From: Escherichia coli
GTDB taxonomy: Bacteria; Pseudomonadota; Gammaproteobacteria; Enterobacterales; Enterobacteriaceae
Direction: 5' to 3' (one strand)
NCBI RefSeq assembly: GCF_024700885.2
Contig: NZ_CP117016.1
Length of the DNA: 64,000 nt
The translations under genes and the position numbers were made by a program. A model generated the notes under the pieces. That model did no database searches. It saw only the letters and a list, made by a program, of their open reading frames with translations, and was not told the origin of the DNA. Shown one piece after another: positions 15,625 to 26,752 of the stretch; positions within the stretch are counted from its first letter, which is position 1; every line of letters starts with the position of its first letter.

Positions 15625-16385
15625 CCGCGTAGCCCCCAAATCGTCAGTGCCATCACTACGCCGACGCAGGTAGCCAGTGTCAGCAGACTGGCGATCGCCC
15701 AGCGTGCCAGTCCGGTATTGATGTGGCCTTTAAACATATCGGCGACGGCATTAATCAACGGAAAACCCGGCACCAGCAGCAGAACGCTGGCGGCCATCGC
15801 GATAGTGGGTGTATTGCTGAAAGTGGGAAGTTGCAAAAGCAAACCGGAAATGGTGGTGGCGGCGAAAGCGGTGAGGCAAAAGTTGATCTGTGGATGAAGA
15901 TGACGTTGTGCCAGCAGCTGGCGGATATACATCGCGACCGTACTGGCAAAGAAGGTGATGACGGCACCATCCCAGCCACCTTTATTGAGTTTACAGAAAC
16001 AGGCGCAAGAAAGGCCGACCATTAAGGCTACCAGCCATCTCGGGTAACGTAATGGCTGAATTTGGCTAAATCGTTTCTCTACACCTTTGTAATCCAGCAG
16101 ATGATGCTCCGCCAGAATCACAATGTGCTGGACTTCAGTCACCACATGCATATTAATGCCGCGATCGTGATTTTTTCGTGTCGATGTCAGGCATTGCCCA
16201 TCTTTAATGGTTGTCAGCACTATGGCGTTCGAAGAGATAGAACTTTCGACGCTGTCCATTCCCAGCGCCCGACCCAGTCGTGAGGAAAGCTCATCAACCA
16301 ACGCGCTTTCCGCACCATGTTGCAAAAGAAATAATCCACACTGGATACAAAGCCGTGTTACGGCTCGCTGTTGCTCAGTTTGCAT
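15615..16385 (-). CDS. yjjP: inner-membrane protein YjjP (ThrE family)
   Basis: 256-aa ORF from the ATG at 16385 ([12 protein letters not shown]...). Confidence 0.8.
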
Positions 16386-16448
16386 AACTCGCCCTTTGTC
16401 ATAGACGTGATGCGTATTGTTCAGATAATGAGAATCCATTTGTATCAT

Positions 16449-17003
16449 GAAGCACGGTTGTTTTGCGGTAGGTTAAGATCAAAATTGCGCTGATTAATCT
16501 TGGTTATCAGGAGAAGCTCGGTGATAAAAAGCGAATTATCTCTCGTCGCAAACAAATTATCACATGAATATTATCACTATAATGAATTTATTGTTTAGCC
16601 TTTACGAATCAGGATAAAAGATAACTGGGCGCGTTTTTTAATTTTTACAAGTTAAAACTATCAGATTTTATTGAATAAATATTGATTGTGTGATCCCGCA
16701 TTCTGCGGGAAGGGATATCAGTTAATTATAAATTAAATGAATGAGAATTCTGTTTTTCATTAAGTATTTCTAACAACTTAATGTAGATATTTTAAATGTC
16801 TCCAGGCTATTTCACCAGGTTATCATTTGATGCTAACCTTCTGACACATGCAGTGGAGTTGTTGTGCAGCAGGAGTATGCTGATATGAAAGTGAATGCTA
16901 AGGATAATTTATTCGCTTAATCTATTAATTTGCTGGAAACATTTAAGGAATGAATATCCTGAATAAACCATCATGATTTATAGACAGTGGATGTGGAGGA
17001 AAT
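16449..17003. promoter_or_regulatory. AT-rich yjjP / yjjQ divergent intergenic region
   Basis: ~550-bp, very AT-rich spacer between divergent genes; an H-NS-type silenced promoter region is expected from K-12 knowledge. Confidence 0.4.
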
Positions 17004-17729
17004 ATGTTGCCAGGATGCTGCAAAAATGGAATTGTTATCAGTAAAATACCTGTTATGCAAGCAGGGTTAAAAGAGGTCATGAGGACTCACTTCCCTGAAT
17101 ATGAAATAATATCCAGCGCCTCTGCGGAGGACCTTACCTTATTACAATTACGTCGTTCCGGATTAGTCATTGCTGATTTAGCCGGTGAAAGTGAAGATCC
17201 ACGTTCTGTTTGTGAACATTATTATTCTTTAATCTCACAATATCGGGAAATTCACTGGGTTTTCATGGTGTCACGTTCCTGGTATTCCCAGGCAGTAGAA
17301 TTGCTCATGTGCCCTACGGCGACGTTATTGTCTGATGTTGAACCCATTGAGAATCTGGTCAAGACCGTTCGTTCCGGCAATACGCACGCAGAGCGTATCA
17401 GCGCCATGCTGACCTCTCCGGCAATGACTGAAACTCATGATTTTAGCTATCGCTCCGTCATTCTCACTCTTTCAGAGCGTAAAGTGCTGCGGCTATTAGG
17501 TAAAGGATGGGGCATCAACCAGATAGCTTCATTGCTTAAGAAAAGTAATAAAACTATCAGCGCCCAAAAAAACAGTGCGATGCGTCGACTGGCAATTCAC
17601 AGCAACGCTGAAATGTATGCATGGATAAATAGCGCGCAGGGTGCAAGAGAACTTAACTTGCCTTCTGTTTATGGAGATGCCGCAGAATGGAACACAGCCG
17701 AATTAAGAAGAGAAATGTCGCACTCATAG
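17004..17729 (+). CDS. yjjQ: LuxR-family transcriptional regulator YjjQ
   Basis: 241-aa ORF with C-terminal LuxR-type HTH. Confidence 0.85.
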
Positions 17730-18364
17730 AAAAATGCGTCATGAGTAGTATCGGTATTGAGAGTTTATTCAGAAAGTTTGCGGGTAACCCTTATAAGCTC
17801 CATACCTATACCAGTCAGGAGTCATTTCAGGATGCCATGTCGCGGATCTCGTTTGCGGCGGTCATTTTTTCTTTTTCTGCCATGAGAAGTGAGCGCAGAG
17901 AGGGATTATCATGCCTGACTGAACTGGCGATTAAGTTCCCGCGTACCCGGCGTTTAGTTATTGCGGATGATGATATTGAAGCTCGGCTGATTGGTTCATT
18001 GTCGCCATCACCGCTGGACGGTGTATTAAGTAAAGCGTCAACGCTGGAGATTTTTCATCAGGAACTCTTTTTGTCATTAAATGGTGTACGTCAGGCGACC
18101 GACCGACTGAACAATCAGTGGTACATTAATCAAAGCCGAACGCTAAGCCCGACGGAGAGAGAAATATTGCGCTTTATGTCGCGTGGCTACTCAATGACAC
18201 AAATTGCCGAGCAGCTTAAACGCAATATCAAAACGATCCGTGCACATAAATTTAATGTGATGTCGAAACTGGGCGTCAGTTCTGATGCAGGGTTGTTGGA
18301 GGCCGCAGATATTCTGTTATGTATGCGGCATTGCGAAGCAAGTAATGTGTTGCATCCCTATTAA
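17687..18364 (+). CDS. bglJ: LuxR-family transcriptional activator BglJ
   Basis: 225-aa ORF overlapping the yjjQ 3' end; C-terminal LuxR HTH ([18 protein letters not shown]). Confidence 0.85.
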
Positions 18365-18401
18365 TCCGCATGATGCCGGGTTTACTTCCCCGGCAGTGCT
18401 T

Positions 18402-19190
18402 TCATTTCAGCGTACAATCGCCACATTGCTGCACATCCGGTAACCGATAACGCTGGCAGCAAGTGCGGCGCACCAGCAGGCCGTCGCGCAGTACCACGGT
18501 ACGCCAGAGTGGATTATCTTCACCGTTCGTGAGCATTTTCTCAAAAAAGAGGGCATGGCGCAGCGATTCAACCGTCGCCTCGCCAAGCAGCTGCTTCATC
18601 TCAGTGAGATACCAGTTGATCAAATAACCGGTATTACTCCAGATAAGTTTGCCGTTGATCTCTCCCGTCGCTTCTAATGCCTGCACAACCGGAACCAGCG
18701 CCTGGCTGATTAACGTTTCCATTCGCTGCTGCGGCGAATGTAGTGTTGCGTTTTTATCTTCACACACATCGACCCAGAAACAGGCGGCGCGTCCGGTTTC
18801 GTGAAACTCAACGTGGAAATGTTCCGGCGACACATCTAATGCTTTTTCCTGCGTCAGCAGCGCCAACATTAATGGTTGCACCATCAGGCCGATATACCAT
18901 TGCGCCCATAGTGAGATCAGCGGTTTGTTCTCGCGGATCATCGTTGGTTGGTTGCGATAGATATGATCGGAATAGACCGCCAGTAGAGAACTTAGCGCAT
19001 TCGTTGATGACCATTGCGCCAGCGTCATGGCGTTAAGCGGAGCGGGTTCATCCAGGCGGATAAACTCGAGCAAATGTTCACGATGTTCGGCGATCGTCGT
19101 CCGTATGGCTTGTGCAAGCCCAGCATCCTGCGGCTGGAGATGCGTTCGCCAGATAACATCTTCATAGAGCGGTGCGGAACGATAGGCCAT
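18402..19190 (-). CDS. fhuF: ferric-siderophore reductase FhuF (2Fe-2S)
   Basis: 262-aa ORF ending in a C-C-x10-C-x2-C cluster (CCQRYRLPDVQQCGDCTLK). Confidence 0.9.
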   Translation of the reverse strand: MAYRSAPLYEDVIWRTHLQPQDAGLAQAIRTTIAEHREHLLEFIRLDEPAPLNAMTLAQWSSTNALSSLLAVYSDHIYRNQPTMIRENKPLISLWAQWYIGLMVQPLMLALLTQEKALDVSPEHFHVEFHETGRAACFWVDVCEDKNATLHSPQQRMETLISQALVPVVQALEATGEINGKLIWSNTGYLINWYLTEMKQLLGEATVESLRHALFFEKMLTNGEDNPLWRTVVLRDGLLVRRTCCQRYRLPDVQQCGDCTLK

Positions 19191-19330
19191 AATCGGGATA
19201 GTAATCTAAATGATAATGATTGCTAATCCTAGCGATAGGTTTACCCGATAGCAAGGGATTTCTCTGGCTTGCAAATGATAAAAATTATCATATGATATTA
19301 GTTATCATTATCAATGAAAGAGATGAAACC

Positions 19331-19567
19331 ATGTTGCAACGTACGCTGGGCAGTGGCTGGGGAGTGTTGCTGCCGGGATTGCTGATTGCAGGGCTGATGT
19401 ATGCGGATTTATCGCCGGATCAGTGGCGGATTGTCATTCTGATGGGATTAATATTGACGCCGGTGATGCTGTATCACAAACAGTTGCGGCATTACGTTTT
19501 GCTGCCATCGTGCCTGGCGCTTATTGCTGGCATCATGCTGATGATAATGAATTTGAATCAGGGATGA
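19331..19567 (+). CDS. yjjZ: small membrane protein YjjZ
   Basis: 78-aa ORF from the ATG at 19331 (MLQRTLGSGWGVLLPG...); position between fhuF and the leu tRNAs. Confidence 0.65.
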   Translation: MLQRTLGSGWGVLLPGLLIAGLMYADLSPDQWRIVILMGLILTPVMLYHKQLRHYVLLPSCLALIAGIMLMIMNLNQG

Positions 19568-19605
19568 AAAATCAGGGAAGAAACAAGAAAGGAAGTAAAG
19601 ATAAT

Positions 19606-19692
19606 TGGTGCGAGGGGGGGGACTTGAACCCCCACGTCCGTAAGGACACTAACACCTGAAGCTAGCGCGTCTACCAATTCCGCCACCTTCGC
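19606..19692 (-). tRNA. leuV: tRNA-Leu (anticodon CAG)
   Basis: 87-nt minus-strand tRNA: GCGAAGGTGGCGGAATTGGTAGACGCGCTAGCTTCAGGTGTTAGTGTCCTTACGGACGTGGGGGTTCAAGTCCCCCCCCTCGCACCA, with long variable arm and encoded CCA. Confidence 0.95.
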
Positions 19693-19726
19693 ACAGTCAT
19701 CTTACTTTTTTTGATATCGCCTCGTT

Positions 19727-19813
19727 TGGTGCGAGGGGGGGGACTTGAACCCCCACGTCCGTAAGAACACTAACACCTGAAGCTAGCGCGTCTACCAATT
19801 CCGCCACCTTCGC
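19727..19813 (-). tRNA. leuP: tRNA-Leu (anticodon CAG), variant copy
   Basis: Same 87-nt tRNA with one substitution in the variable arm (plus strand gtaagaac instead of gtaaggac). Confidence 0.93.
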
Positions 19814-19841
19814 CCAGTGCGAGCAATATCAACGTGGTTTT

Positions 19842-19928
19842 TGGTGCGAGGGGGGGGACTTGAACCCCCACGTCCGTAAGGACACTAACACCTGAAGCTA
19901 GCGCGTCTACCAATTCCGCCACCTTCGC
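19842..19928 (-). tRNA. leuQ: tRNA-Leu (anticodon CAG)
   Basis: Third tandem copy, identical to copy 1; first transcribed of the minus-strand leuQPV operon. Confidence 0.95.
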
Positions 19929-20049
19929 ATACCATCAATTCTTAAAAAGAATTGCTACCACGGAGGCGCATTCTAGTGGTTTTCAGCTTTTCGTCAATAG
20001 TTAATTATCGCCGGAGGTGTAATTGCTGGAAAAATGTCCATCAGGAAAC

Positions 20050-20215
<166 letters not shown>

Positions 20216-20228
20216 TGCGGCGGGATAC

Positions 20229-21260
20229 TTAACCTTTCTTCGCCTGGCGGGTCATAATGGCGCGATACACCTTGAAGCGCCCGGTTTGCGCGATCACTTC
20301 ATGGAAGCCAAATGTCTCATCCAGCACGTCCGGATAAGGCAGGAAGGCGTTCGCTACAATTCGCAGCTCGCCGCCGCTATTAAGATGACGCACCGCGCCG
20401 CGAATCAGCGTTTGCGCCGCATCGAGGCTGGTTTGCATCCCATCGTGGAACGGCGGGTTGGAGATGATCATATCAAAACGACCTTTCACCTCGGAAAAGA
20501 CGTTACTGGCAAAGACTTCACCTTCAACACCGTTGGCCGCAAGTGTTGCGCGGCTGGCTTCTACCGCTGGCGCAGAGACATCGCACAGAGTGAGACGAAT
20601 TTTCGGCGAATGGCGCGCAAAGGCAACAGAAAGCACGCCCGCGCCACAGCCGACATCCAGCACTTTACCTTTCGTGTGCGGAGTTAACGTCGAGAGCAGT
20701 AACTGGCTACCGACATCCAGACCGTCGCGGCTAAACACGCCCGGCAGCGTTTTGACCGTCAGGCCATCCACGTTATATTCGCCCCAGAATTTATCCGCAT
20801 CAAATTCCGGCTGTTTTTCCAGACGACCAAAATAGAGGCCGCAGCGACGGGCGCTGTCGACTTTATTCAACGGCGCATAATCTGCCAGCATCTGTTCGGC
20901 GCTGCGCACGCCGCTGCGGTTCTCGCCAACGACAAAAATATCCGTGCCCACCGGCAGCAGAGAAAGTAAATTCATCAACTGGAACTGGGCTTCCGGTTTA
21001 TTCTTCGGCCAGTAGTAGATCAGCGTATCGCAATCTGCGACGTCATCTGCCGTTGCGACCAGACTAAAACGGGCGTTATCCCCCATCTGGCGGCTTAACA
21101 CCTGCCAATGGTGGAATTGCTGGGTATGAGCACGGCTGGCCGCGGTATCTAAACGCGCGGGCAGGTCATCCTGTAAGTCTCCGGCAAACAGAATACGGCT
21201 TTGTTCGAAATCATCACTGTGACGCAGCAAGACTTCACTTGCCGGGGTAAATGCAGACAT
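20229..21260 (-). CDS. rsmC: 16S rRNA m2G1207 methyltransferase
   Basis: 343-aa ORF with SAM-binding [11 protein letters not shown] and NPPFH motif. Confidence 0.9.
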
Positions 21261-21362
21261 GGAATGCTCCTCAATTGATACTGGCGGCGATTATAGCCAT
21301 ATGTTGGCGCGGTATCGACGAATTTGCTATATTTGCGCCCCTGACAACAGGAGCGATTCGCT

Positions 21363-21776
21363 ATGACATCCCGACGAGACTGGCAGTTACAGCAACTGGG
21401 CATTACCCAGTGGTCGCTGCGTCGCCCTGGCGCGTTGCAGGGGGAGATTGCCATTGCGATCCCGGCACACGTCCGTCTGGTGATGGTGGCAAACGATCTT
21501 CCCGCCCTGACTGATCCTCTGGTGAGCGATGTTCTGCGCGCATTAACCGTCAGCCCCGATCAAGTGCTGCAACTGACGCCAGAAAAAATCTCGATGCTGC
21601 CACAAGGCAGTCGCTGCAACAGCTGGCGGTTGGGTACTGACGAACCGCTATCACTGGAAGGCGCTCAGGTGGCATCACCGGCGCTCACCGAATTACGGGC
21701 AAACCCAACGGCACGCGCCGCGTTATGGCAACAAATTTGCACATATGAACACGATTTCTTCCCTCGAAACGACTGA
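21363..21776 (+). CDS. holD: DNA polymerase III psi subunit
   Basis: 137-aa ORF (MTSRRDWQLQQLGITQWSLRRP...). Confidence 0.9.
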   Translation: MTSRRDWQLQQLGITQWSLRRPGALQGEIAIAIPAHVRLVMVANDLPALTDPLVSDVLRALTVSPDQVLQLTPEKISMLPQGSRCNSWRLGTDEPLSLEGAQVASPALTELRANPTARAALWQQICTYEHDFFPRND

Positions 21777-22191
21777 TTTACCAGCGGCTTACCACATTGA
21801 ACAACGCGCCCACGCCTTTCCGTGGAGTGAGAAAACCTTTGCCAGCAACCAGGGCGAGCGTTATCTCAACTTTCAGTTAACGCAAAACGGCAAAATGGCG
21901 GCGTTTGCGATTACGCAAGTGGTGCTGGATGAAGCTACATTGTTCAATATTGCGGTCGATCCTGACTATCAGCGTCAGGGATTGGGAAGGGCGCTGCTGG
22001 AACATCTGATCGACGAACTGGAAAAACGCGGCGTGGCGACGCTATGGCTGGAAGTCCGTGCCTCAAACGCTGCCGCCATTGCACTGTACGAAAGTTTAGG
22101 CTTTAACGAGGCGACGATTCGCCGCAATTACTACCCCACCACGGACGGTCGCGAAGACGCCATCATCATGGCGTTGCCAATCAGTATGTAA
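21745..22191 (+). CDS. rimI: ribosomal-protein S18 alanine N-acetyltransferase
   Basis: 148-aa GNAT ORF ([14 protein letters not shown]), overlaps the holD 3' end. Confidence 0.9.
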
Positions 22192-22205
22192 GACAAGGTG
22201 GAATA

Positions 22206-22883
22206 ATGAAGTGGGACTGGATTTTCTTTGATGCCGATGAAACGCTGTTTACCTTTGACTCATTCACCGGCCTGCAGCGGATGTTTCTTGATTACAGCGT
22301 CACCTTTACCGCTGAAGATTTTCAGGACTATCAGGCCGTTAACAAGCCACTGTGGGTGGATTATCAAAACGGCGCGATCACTTCATTACAGCTTCAGCAC
22401 GGGCGGTTTGAGAGCTGGGCCGAACGGCTGAACGTCGAGCCGGGTAAACTCAACGAAGCCTTTATTAATGCGATGGCGGAAATCTGTACGCCGCTGCCGG
22501 GCGCGGTTTCTCTGCTTAACGCCATTCGTGGCAACGCTAAAATTGGCATCATCACCAACGGCTTTAGCGCCTTGCAGCAAGTGCGTCTGGAACGCACGGG
22601 CCTGCGTGATTATTTCGATTTGCTGGTGATTTCCGAAGAAGTTGGCGTTGCCAAACCGAATAAGAAAATTTTCGATTATGCGCTGGAACAGGCGGGCAAT
22701 CCTGACCGTTCACGCGTGCTGATGGTTGGCGACACTGCCGAGTCCGATATTCTCGGTGGCATCAACGCCGGGCTTGCGACCTGCTGGCTGAATGCGCACA
22801 ATCGCGAGCAACCAGAAGGCATCGCGCCTACCTGGACCGTTTCTTCGTTGCACGAACTGGAGCAGCTCCTGTGTAAACACTGA
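22206..22883 (+). CDS. yjjG: HAD-family pyrimidine 5'-nucleotidase
   Basis: 225-aa ORF with HAD motif [10 protein letters not shown] and motif [14 protein letters not shown]. Confidence 0.9.
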
Positions 22884-22973
22884 TTGCCTCCCCCCCGTTG
22901 ATGGGTAAAATAGCCGCAATTTTTCGTTTTCAACAAGCGCGGCGCGATGCCGCTTACTCAAGAAGAAAGAATT

Positions 22974-23048
22974 ATGACGTTGTCTCCTTATTTGCAAGAG
23001 GTGGCGAAGCGCCGCACTTTTGCCATTATTTCTCACCCCAATAATTAA
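22974..23048 (+). pseudogene. prfC: 5' remnant of prfC (peptide chain release factor 3) interrupted by the prophage; attL region
   Basis: ATG at 22974 encodes [22 protein letters not shown], the RF3 N-terminus, then diverges inside the GTPase P-loop to NN-stop at 23046-23048. Confidence 0.75.
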
Positions 23049-23201
23049 GCCAAAATTAAAGCTCTTTTACTCTTTCAAAATCCTTTCAGTTAATTGAGGT
23101 TGAGCCATATAACTCATTTAAATACATTTAGTTATGTGGCTTCTTTAATTGAAAATTCTTTCATGTAACTTTAAATCGATCTGCTTGCTTTCATCAAAAA
23201 T

Positions 23202-23260
23202 CTGTACATGTGCTTGTACATAATGTACAAAACAGCAGAGGTGTTTTTTTATTTGTACAA
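23202..23260. promoter_or_regulatory. cluster of TGTACA-type palindromic sites upstream of int
   Basis: Perfect 17-bp palindrome ttgtacat-a-atgtacaa (23214-23230) plus flanking tgtacat and ttgtacaa half-sites within 60 bp, ending 9 bp before the int RBS. Confidence 0.5.
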
Positions 23261-23268
23261 GGTGAGTA

Positions 23269-24486
23269 ATGGCGCTGTCTGATGCGTGGTTGCGTTCAGT
23301 CGTTGGAAAGGAACGTGATAAGGTTTTGGTTAAATCCGATCGTGATGGTCTGTCTGTCAGAGTATCACCGAAAGGTCGCGTAGTGTTCCAATATCGTTAT
23401 CAATGGGCAGGGAAAGGTGAGCGCCTTGATATCGGAACTTACCCGGCAACTGGATTAAAAGAGGCCAGAGAAGAAGTTATCCGTCTCCGTGGTGAACTCG
23501 AGTCAAACCGCAATCCACGATTAGTCAGGCAGGCTGAAAAACGAAAAGCTACTGAAGCCATGACGGTAGAGTCTGTGATCCGTGCCTGGTATGAAGCATA
23601 TTGTGTAAAAAATAAAAAAGGTTCTGAACAGATACTCCGCTCGTTTGAGCTGCACCTGTTCTCTAAAATCGGGAATATCCCTCACGATGCAGCTACATTG
23701 CATGATTGGTTAGAAGTCCTGGAGCCTCTTAGCACTAAGACTCCAGCAATAGCAGACCGATTGCTAATTAACGCAAAGCAGGCCCATGTCTGGGCGTATA
23801 AGAGAAAGCTCATTGAAACTCGCCCACTGTCGGATATCACGGGTAAAGATATGGATATCCGTAAAGGTCAGAAGAAACGGTTTCTGACACATGATGAAAT
23901 TAAAATCCTTTATGCTGCGATCGATGGTTCTCGAATGGTTCCTAAATACCGGGCCTTCATTAAACTATTGCTGCATTTTGGCTGCCGTAGTTCAGAGCTA
24001 ATTACCGCCAGGGTGGACGATTTTGATTTCATTAATAAAGTATGGACTGTACCACCAGAACGACATAAGACTGGGGAGATAACAGGCGAACCGCTAAAGC
24101 GGCCCATTATTGAACCGGTTGAAGAGCTTATAAAGTACGCTATTTCTATGAACAATGGTTCCGATATGCTTTTTACTAAGGAAGGAAGCAGGGAACCCGT
24201 TGGTCGGACATCATTGCAGTCGCTGCCTTACAATTTAATGCAGTACGCATGGCGGCGTTTGGGGTATCAATTCCCTCATTGGTCTCTTCATGATTTGAGG
24301 CGAACAGCACGAACAAACTTTTCTGATCTTACTGCGCCTCATATTGCAGAAATAATGCTAGGTCATAAACTGCCAGGGGTATGGCAGGTTTATGACAAGA
24401 GCGATTATTTAGATGAACAGCGTAAAGCTTACCAGGCATGGTGGGAGAGAGTTGAATCGATAGTTACTTGTACTTGTTCAGACTAG
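23269..24486 (+). CDS. int: tyrosine site-specific integrase
   Basis: 405-aa ORF; C-terminal catalytic region with HDLRRTARTN and LGHKLPGVWQVYD (conserved R, H-x-x-R and Tyr); GGTGAG RBS. Confidence 0.9.
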   Translation: MALSDAWLRSVVGKERDKVLVKSDRDGLSVRVSPKGRVVFQYRYQWAGKGERLDIGTYPATGLKEAREEVIRLRGELESNRNPRLVRQAEKRKATEAMTVESVIRAWYEAYCVKNKKGSEQILRSFELHLFSKIGNIPHDAATLHDWLEVLEPLSTKTPAIADRLLINAKQAHVWAYKRKLIETRPLSDITGKDMDIRKGQKKRFLTHDEIKILYAAIDGSRMVPKYRAFIKLLLHFGCRSSELITARVDDFDFINKVWTVPPERHKTGEITGEPLKRPIIEPVEELIKYAISMNNGSDMLFTKEGSREPVGRTSLQSLPYNLMQYAWRRLGYQFPHWSLHDLRRTARTNFSDLTAPHIAEIMLGHKLPGVWQVYDKSDYLDEQRKAYQAWWERVESIVTCTCSD

Positions 24487-24619
24487 AACTGACATTTTGC
24501 ATAGGCAGAACGCAATTATGCATATTGCGGTATAATCCCCTTCTTAAAACTGTAAGAACTGCTTGCTAATCCTTGCAGTTTTTGATTATAACATTTTTAT
24601 TTGTTTATTAGGATTTTTG

Positions 24620-26752
24620 ATGGAACTGTTACAGGAACACGGGGCGATACTTAAAGTTGTAATCATGCCTACTACTGGGGAACAAACCATAATCCAAGGT
24701 TTCGATACTGGCCTCCTCAACCCAGAGATATCCAACATTCTTTTTTTATTGGCCAAAACACCAAAAGAAATTAGTGAGATTTTTGTCAATGAAAATGATA
24801 ACTTTCAGCCTACTCTAAGCGGGCTAAATCCTATTTTTTTAATATCTAAAGAAAATCTTGAAAAAATACCAGATATTTATCAAACGCCATTTTGCTTAAT
24901 TTTTTGTGCTAAAGAAGATTTTTCGTATGTTTGTGCTTTAAAAAAACATTTTGCTATACCACCTATAATTTGTTGCAATTCTAAACGCGCTGATCTACCA
25001 CTTAATAAGATTAATAGTATATACTCATTTGATAAGGTGCTCTTCTCTCGGTTGAAATTCATTGAGGATAAAATAAGAAAAAATCACAGTGAAAAGAAAA
25101 TATCAACGAAGTTGAAGCGAAGAGGGGCTTTATTTAATAAATCACCTTGGAGATCGACGCTTAACAATTCAACACTACCCAATGAGTTGTTAATTGAATC
25201 ACTTGGCTATATGCTATCTCCACCAAAAAGAATTAAAGATGGTAGTAGCAAAAGAGAGTTTATAGAAATAATACTTCATAGCGTTGATGCATACACCGAA
25301 TGTTTAAAGGAATTAGATATACCACTTCCAACGGAAGTCTTACTTTTTGCTCCGGGTATGCACTCTTTTTTATATGATAAAAATAATGACTTTTATGAGT
25401 TAATAACGGAAAATTTATCCACAATTGAGAAAAAATTCCTTATTGATGGAGTGTTGAGGAATCCAGGCTATTCTGGAATTAGACTTGATATAAATTCAGA
25501 TAGAAAAGAACTTTTTAAAAGTCCTGCTTTCCGTTACCTCACCTCACTAAGACGAGCTGAAATGCGATTAACAACAGCTGCGATTACTTTATTTAGCATA
25601 AATAAAAAAATCCCAGCAATAAGATTGCCAAATGCAATAAATCATTACTCCAATTATTTGAAAAATCTTGAAGATCTTGCAACTTCTTCTGGGATAAATA
25701 GTGAAGCATTCATCACTAAATCTAAAGCATTCAATACTGTTATTCGAAGAGCCCTTGGTTGCAAGTTGAGAACATATATAAGTAAAAACTATAGCGATTT
25801 GTCCTTTGTTTGTGATGTACCATTGGATTGGATTAGGTTTAATAACATACCTATAATGTTCAGTCATGAGATATCAAGAATAAATGCTACGCCTGGTAAC
25901 GTTCTTCTACAGAGCGCCTCTGCTTTTCCGCGCGTTTTAGTAAAAGCATCTGAGTTGAGAAAGGTTTTAGTTATACGTTCTTTTGAGCCTGATGATCACT
26001 TAAAGTTCATATTAGAGAACGCAATTGAGATATTTAAAAAACAGATGCCAGATCTTGATTGCGAGATTATTGATGTTAGATCGAAAGCTGAGTTTATTGA
26101 TGCTCTAAATCAATATCAAGGTCATATTCTTGTTATGGATTGTCATGGAAACCATGATGGCAATGGGAGTCATGGATGGTTAATAATAGGTGAGGATAAA
26201 GTGGACACTTGGAGTTTGAGAAAAATAGCAAGAATTCCTCCTATCGTAATTCTGAGTGCATGTTTAACATCTGCCCTAAGTGGTTCTCATGCCTCTGTTG
26301 CTAATGGCTTCGTTATAAGTGGTGCATTAAGTGTCATCGGAACATTACTGCCTGTAAATGCGATAGACTCTGCTGTTTTTGTAAGTCGGTTGATCTACCG
26401 GTTTTACGAGTTTCCTTCGACGCTATCTACAAATTTTACACATGTTAATGTAAGGCTTTTTCTTTCTGTTTTTCTTAGGATGTCCTATGCAAGCGATTTA
26501 ATAAGAGGATTTTTATCTGAAGATTTGATACCGAATAATTCATGGAAGAAAGATGCAGTTGATATTAACATGTATATAAACATGCTTCACCATGATTGGT
26601 ATGATTATGTAATTAACAAATTGACGATGTTAACGGGGCTCACGAAAAAAGATGTACTTGATTTTATCGATAGAAAATTATTCATAACCGAAACTATGTG
26701 CTATAGCCAAATTGGATTTCCAGATGCAATCACAATTAGTCTTAAAGATTGA
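24620..26752 (+). CDS. large AT-rich cargo protein with C-terminal caspase-like (CHAT-type) His/Cys protease signature; candidate defence protein
   Basis: ATG at 24620 (AGGA 6 nt upstream) gives ~710 aa. C-terminal region HILVMDCHGNHDGNGSHGWLIIGE...IPPIVILSACLTSALSGSH...GALSVIGTLLPVNAIDSAVFVSRLIYRFY has the His (HG) then Cys (SAC) spacing of clan-CD peptidases. N-terminal ~500 aa unassigned. Confidence 0.7.
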   Translation: MELLQEHGAILKVVIMPTTGEQTIIQGFDTGLLNPEISNILFLLAKTPKEISEIFVNENDNFQPTLSGLNPIFLISKENLEKIPDIYQTPFCLIFCAKEDFSYVCALKKHFAIPPIICCNSKRADLPLNKINSIYSFDKVLFSRLKFIEDKIRKNHSEKKISTKLKRRGALFNKSPWRSTLNNSTLPNELLIESLGYMLSPPKRIKDGSSKREFIEIILHSVDAYTECLKELDIPLPTEVLLFAPGMHSFLYDKNNDFYELITENLSTIEKKFLIDGVLRNPGYSGIRLDINSDRKELFKSPAFRYLTSLRRAEMRLTTAAITLFSINKKIPAIRLPNAINHYSNYLKNLEDLATSSGINSEAFITKSKAFNTVIRRALGCKLRTYISKNYSDLSFVCDVPLDWIRFNNIPIMFSHEISRINATPGNVLLQSASAFPRVLVKASELRKVLVIRSFEPDDHLKFILENAIEIFKKQMPDLDCEIIDVRSKAEFIDALNQYQGHILVMDCHGNHDGNGSHGWLIIGEDKVDTWSLRKIARIPPIVILSACLTSALSGSHASVANGFVISGALSVIGTLLPVNAIDSAVFVSRLIYRFYEFPSTLSTNFTHVNVRLFLSVFLRMSYASDLIRGFLSEDLIPNNSWKKDAVDINMYINMLHHDWYDYVINKLTMLTGLTKKDVLDFIDRKLFITETMCYSQIGFPDAITISLKD

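Follow-up and report, generated by a model that had tools for sequence, protein, structure and literature searches.

The leuQ, leuP, and leuV genes of Escherichia coli form one operon, and their primary transcript is cut into the individual tRNAs by RNase P (PMC2190699). The LeuP tRNA differs from LeuT, LeuV, and LeuQ by one nucleotide in the variable loop (PMC12472396). Likewise, leuP is described as a unique sequence, with leuQ, leuT, and leuV identical to one another, and tRNA-seq treats it as a reference of its own (bioRxiv 10.1101/2020.02.21.958157). All four leu genes are shaded as “identical” in PMC2190699, which we regard as a simplification. In the reference genome of E. coli K-12 MG1655 (NC_000913.3), the gene order at this locus is yjjZ (plus strand), leuV, leuP, and leuQ (all minus strand), and rsmC (minus strand).

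We analyzed a stretch of 64,000 nucleotides from an E. coli genome (contig NZ_CP117016.1, hereafter the window). ARAGORN found three tRNA genes in it and no others, all of them 87-nt genes for tRNA-Leu(CAG) on the minus strand, and each scored 48.5 bits against the Rfam tRNA model RF00005, for which the gathering score is 29. The three tandem genes are flanked by yjjZ and rsmC and run in the opposite direction to yjjZ. Because this order, yjjZ, leuV leuP leuQ, rsmC, matches both NC_000913.3 and E. coli MLI114, the genes were identified as leuQ, leuP, and leuV, as the earlier note had named them. MLI114 is annotated with the same gene order and is 100% identical to the window over the 8 kb from 16000 to 24000. 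The features of the array are as follows.

19970–19997, minus strand: sigma-70 promoter-like site upstream of leuQ, TTGACG-16 nt-TAGAAT (consensus scan, 10/12 matches)
19842–19928, minus strand: leuQ, the tRNA-Leu(CAG) gene nearest the promoter; RNA position 48 is C (ARAGORN; Rfam, 48.5 bits; position of leuQ b4370 in NC_000913.3; sequence of K-12 leuT)
19814–19841, minus strand: leuQ–leuP spacer, 28 nt, a unique sequence used as the anchor for allele counts (six-genome alignment)
19727–19813, minus strand: leuP, the middle tRNA-Leu(CAG) gene, an isodecoder with U at RNA position 48 (ARAGORN; Rfam; 87/87 nt identical to K-12 MG1655 leuP b4369)
19766, minus strand: the variable site, where plus-strand A corresponds to RNA U48 (Sprinzl e12) in leuP (alignment)
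19693–19726, minus strand: leuP–leuV spacer, 34 nt
19606–19692, minus strand: leuV, the tRNA-Leu(CAG) gene farthest from the promoter; RNA position 48 is C (ARAGORN; Rfam; position of leuV b4368)

The promoter-like site is the predicted promoter of the operon. Between it and rsmC lie REP/BIME-type repeats (20040–20215), including a match to naRNA4 (RF02564; 20068–20150, 70.3 bits in Rfam) that is followed by a similar second copy; both copies start with “ctaacgtgcaggttttgtagg”.

Farther from the array on the same side, the window contains what looks like an integrative island inserted at the 5′ end of prfC (22974–26752). Of prfC, the sequence has no more than the first 23 codons (22974–23042), and these are followed by a tyrosine integrase (23269–24486; Pfam Phage_integrase and an arm-DNA-binding domain) and then by a 729-aa open reading frame with a CHAT domain (24563–26752). 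K-12 has no such island after yjjG. When the window from 16000 to 24000 was compared with 5,426 complete E. coli genomes, at least 80% of it was covered in only 4,086.

Each of the three genes has the features of tRNA-Leu1 (CAG): the anticodon cag at position 35, and an end in GCACCA, which comprises the discriminator A73 and the encoded 3′ CCA. They also belong to class II: aligned to the Rfam model, each has 12 inserted nucleotides in the variable region, and the long variable arm folds into a stem-loop of its own. When the three copies were aligned, 86 columns were invariant and one, RNA position 48, varied, with C in leuQ and leuV and T in leuP. On the plus strand, the middle copy reads “gtaagaac” at 19761–19768 and the other two “gtaaggac”; the equivalent bases are plus-strand G (RNA C) at 19645 in leuV and 19881 in leuQ. 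The earlier note had described a single variable-arm substitution in the middle copy between identical first and third copies, and ARAGORN and the alignment bore this description out in every detail.

When we mapped the sequence onto the cloverleaf ourselves, linear position 48 fell at Sprinzl e12, where its partner is G55 (e22). The variable-arm stem has 3 bp (47–49 with 54–56) and a 4-nt loop, UUAC, and position 48 forms the middle pair. The C48–G55 pair thus becomes a U48·G55 wobble in leuP; the stem is kept, and all of its pairs are standard in both forms. Unconstrained minimum-free-energy folding produced a cloverleaf for neither the C form nor the U form, so the cloverleaf was evaluated explicitly; tRNAs often fail to give a cloverleaf in unconstrained folding. 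The C form came out at −26.4 kcal/mol and the U form at −23.5 kcal/mol, i.e., a ΔΔG of +2.9 kcal/mol for U. The anticodon, discriminator A73, CCA end, and D and T arms are the same in all three copies. In all three, moreover, the acceptor-stem pair A5·C68 is a mismatch (RNA positions 5 and 79; Infernal and a pair check). Furthermore, the long variable arm is reportedly not an identity element for the E. coli LeuRS. Because the substitution preserves the pairing and leaves the anticodon, discriminator, and tertiary-interaction nucleotides unchanged, the leuP tRNA would be expected to be charged and used like its C-form neighbors, and the two forms would then be functionally equivalent. The difference between G–C and G·U preserves the structure and is probably near-neutral, and the suggestion in the earlier note that it is “probably neutral” is therefore plausible in that the stem is kept.

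The comparison with K-12 then showed what the substitution is. The leuP gene of the window is identical to MG1655 leuP (b4369) at 87 of 87 nt, including U48, and both are the middle gene of three, with the same spacers and with yjjZ and rsmC as neighbors; no difference was found in the tRNA genes or the spacers. The leuQ and leuV genes of the window are identical to K-12 leuT. Compared with K-12 leuQ, leuV, and leuT, the leuP of the window matches at 86 of 87 nt and agrees in the anticodon, the acceptor stem, and the D and T arms, whereas the K-12 genes have C at e12, a G–C pair, and a cloverleaf that is more stable by the 2.9 kcal/mol given above. U in place of C at position 48 (e12) is thus confined to the middle gene, as in the leuP allele. 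The same arrangement, C-U-C at position 48 in the order of transcription, was found in DH1, 14EC029, MLI109, and PAR. Over a region of 431 nt, the window and K-12 DH1 differed only at a single base, close to the stop codon of yjjZ (19575).

To count the alleles in E. coli, we used a 97-nt query (19745–19841) that contains the variable site and the unique leuQ–leuP spacer, which did not vary across the six-genome alignment, and that avoids the error-prone 8-base homopolymer. A synthetic copy with the other allele served as the second query. At 97 nt, one mismatch drops below the 99% identity band, and with an E-value limit of 1e-35 only full-length matches were counted. Without this limit, 564 records matched the C allele at ≥ 99%, a number inflated by perfect partial matches of 69 nt to other copies in genomes without the middle gene. 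The leuQ–leuP junction, with the spacer at full length, was present in 4,976 of the 5,426 complete E. coli genomes. Among these 4,976 genomes, 4,521 carried the exact allele of the window (U), 130 carried the exact C allele, and the other 325 differed elsewhere in the query. One of the last group, SE11, was inspected individually and had U together with a SNP in the spacer; the lower-ranked matches to the C query suggest that most of the 325 likewise have U and one further SNP. With the 325 classed from evenly spaced rows, we estimate that ∼97% of the junction-bearing genomes carry U.

The earlier note had also proposed that the substitution might serve as a strain marker, a reading in which a neutral point mutation specific to this strain would have arisen in the middle copy. 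It is true that the site is the sole difference among the three copies of the window, and that it is polymorphic in E. coli, with C in 130 genomes. However, U is the majority allele, is identical to that of MG1655, and is kept across genera, as described below, and the base is already in the literature as the ordinary sequence of leuP. The minority allele would also be a poor marker, because C recurs in unrelated backgrounds (O55:H7, ETEC H10407, and a record labeled K-12 MG1655). When other E. coli genomes were compared, the substitution thus turned out to be the common allele of the species, and a mutation specific to this strain was rejected as extremely improbable. An error of sequencing or assembly in the window has even less probability. 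Tandem identical repeats with an 8-base homopolymer nearby are error-prone, and obvious run-length errors occur in some public assemblies, e.g., a run of six Cs in all three copies in ET979 and of nine Cs in leuV in CP025268. Nevertheless, thousands of independent assemblies have the same base, among them the K-12 and DH1 references of the Sanger era, and it also occurs in other genera; we rejected this reading as well. The middle gene of the window is almost certainly the canonical leuP isodecoder allele, inherited rather than newly arisen.

We also analyzed how far the allele extends beyond E. coli. One genome per bacterial species was scanned for a 36-mer that contains the U, and at least 120 loci were found; the scan recovers only loci with a U copy, so that the fraction of species with homogenized arrays cannot be derived from this number. 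The matches listed were from Escherichia albertii, Citrobacter, Klebsiella, Raoultella, Salmonella enterica subsp. arizonae, Kosakonia, Enterobacter, Pseudocitrobacter, Phytobacter, Intestinirhabdus, Franconibacter, Trabulsiella, Proteus, Morganella, Xenorhabdus, Photorhabdus, and others. Among the matches listed, at least 31 arrays, spread over about a dozen genera, read C-U-C in the order of transcription, and at least two read C-C-U. The multi-copy arrays with enough flanking sequence adjoin rsmC, and within Enterobacteriaceae they also adjoin yjjZ and often fhuF. The tRNAs of the C-U-C arrays beside rsmC are identical to those of the window in Citrobacter, Klebsiella, Raoultella, S. enterica subsp. 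arizonae, and Kosakonia, and also in Pseudocitrobacter, Phytobacter, Intestinirhabdus, Franconibacter, and E. albertii. In contrast, Trabulsiella and a metagenome-assembled genome (MAG) of Pluralibacter have C-C-U arrays, and the array of Lelliottia has another variable-arm variant, C49 to U. This C49-to-U change (e13) was found, instead of C48 to U, in the first two Leu(CAG) genes of the arrays of an Enterobacter MAG, Lelliottia, and Enterobacteriaceae bacterium RIT714, where it forms a different G·U pair in the same 3-bp stem and is accompanied by C at position 5.

In Morganellaceae, where RsmC is only 55–58% identical, the array beside rsmC differs in having only two genes, in the order U-C (Xenorhabdus and Photorhabdus) or C-U (Proteus and Morganella), with 2–5 further substitutions. 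These tRNAs have G·U where those of the window have the acceptor-stem A5·C68. The equivalent of leuT, which lies in an Arg-His-Leu-Pro tRNA cluster of the argX-hisR-leuT-proM type, carries U in at least 36 loci outside E. coli. Many other genera of Enterobacterales are therefore unlike E. coli in this respect: among the matches listed, the leuT equivalent usually has U48, whereas leuT of E. coli K-12 has C. Because the C-U-C order beside rsmC occurs in many genera, and because the arrays of Morganellaceae also combine U and C, the distribution of these sequences indicates that the C/U dimorphism at position 48 is older than the genus Escherichia.

The loss of U within E. coli was also traced. 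Arrays with C in all three copies and with all spacers intact were found in O55:H7 RM12579 and ETEC H10407, and C-C-C with intact spacers is the pattern that gene conversion from a neighboring copy would leave. Shorter arrays were also found: O157:H7 TR01 has two copies, the second joined straight to the leuV trailer, and a single copy is present in O157:H7 ATCC 43888, O157:H7 LSU61, and the non-O157 strain AVS0744. Such one- and two-copy arrays bear the signature expected of unequal crossing-over. About 450 of the 5,426 complete genomes were without the leuQ–leuP junction, and in all but one of these there was no U copy. Because U is missing from nearly all of these ∼450 genomes and from the 130 C-C-C genomes, with O157:H7 among the successful lineages concerned, the genome comparison indicates that the U form is dispensable. 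It also shows the rare states in strains of unrelated background. A literature search on gene conversion among the tRNA genes of E. coli returned nothing specific to position 48.

Some of the C-C-C arrays must be read with care. CP025268, a resequencing record labeled K-12 MG1655, has C in leuP together with its 9-C run in leuV, and ET979 has C in leuP together with its 6-C runs. Because both records also show run-length errors, some of the C-C-C calls are probably artifacts of long-read polishing and not conversions. The run concerned is an 8-base run of G on the plus strand of each gene (19614–19621, 19735–19742, and 19850–19857), i.e., C8 in the 3′ strand of the T stem and acceptor stem. 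The 8-bp G·C run has been reported as the main indel hotspot among the tRNA genes of E. coli, and a genuine one (PMC8510543); variants in the length of this run may therefore be assembly errors or real mutations. That study, a mutation accumulation analysis in which leuP is mentioned often, covers indels in the run and does not concern position 48.

We propose the following explanation for the locus. The leuQPV operon would be transcribed from the promoter upstream of leuQ as one precursor, from which RNase P would release the single tRNAs, one of them the leuP isodecoder, whose 3-bp variable-arm stem has G·U and not G–C as its middle pair. Rather than being a mutation that arose recently in this strain, the U of leuP almost certainly goes back to an ancestor that predates the genus Escherichia, and it has stayed in the middle gene. 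From time to time, gene conversion by the flanking copies would turn an array into C-C-C, and unequal crossing-over among the repeats would produce arrays of two copies or one. Both processes would remove U in a minority of the E. coli lineages.

A different account of the persistence of U is that the U(e12) isodecoder has been kept by selection across Enterobacterales, either because this tRNA has a distinct function or because the mismatch protects the array from recombination. Possible routes are an effect on stability and turnover, on modification or the production of fragments, or on the response to a nuclease that targets tRNAs. As for protection, one mismatch could shorten the uninterrupted identity available for recombination between neighboring genes, and could thus guard the array against both homogenization and collapse. 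At least 31 loci in about a dozen genera have the C-U-C order, and a U copy and a C copy stand beside rsmC even in Morganellaceae; both observations favor selection, as does the persistence of this order although conversion and deletion demonstrably happen within E. coli. U in the leuT equivalent of many genera points in the same direction, and the O55:H7/O157:H7 lineage, in which a C-C-C array occurs alongside arrays of two copies or one, would fit a protective mismatch; if this were true, the collapse of C-C-C arrays in that lineage would be an example of what U prevents. However, the genomes that have lost U, O157:H7 among them, speak against selection. Moreover, the structure is preserved in both forms, and the second G·U pair in the same stem, formed by C49 to U in Lelliottia and Enterobacter, is what would be seen with tolerated drift. 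The scan across species, moreover, sees only loci with a U copy. We therefore consider selection on U unlikely, although clearly less so than either a strain-specific mutation or an error, and the canonical, inherited leuP allele remains our reading of the middle gene.

The importance of this result is low, and it closes a lead: the base at position 48 is part of the reference leuP sequence, and it should not be used in strain typing. In E. coli, it is the rare states of the locus that are informative, namely the C-C-C, two-copy, and one-copy arrays, and even these need care, because they recur in unrelated lineages and can be mimicked by errors of long-read polishing. The persistence of a one-base dimorphism in a tandem tRNA array, despite conversion and deletion, nonetheless poses a small, testable question about the concerted evolution of tRNA genes.
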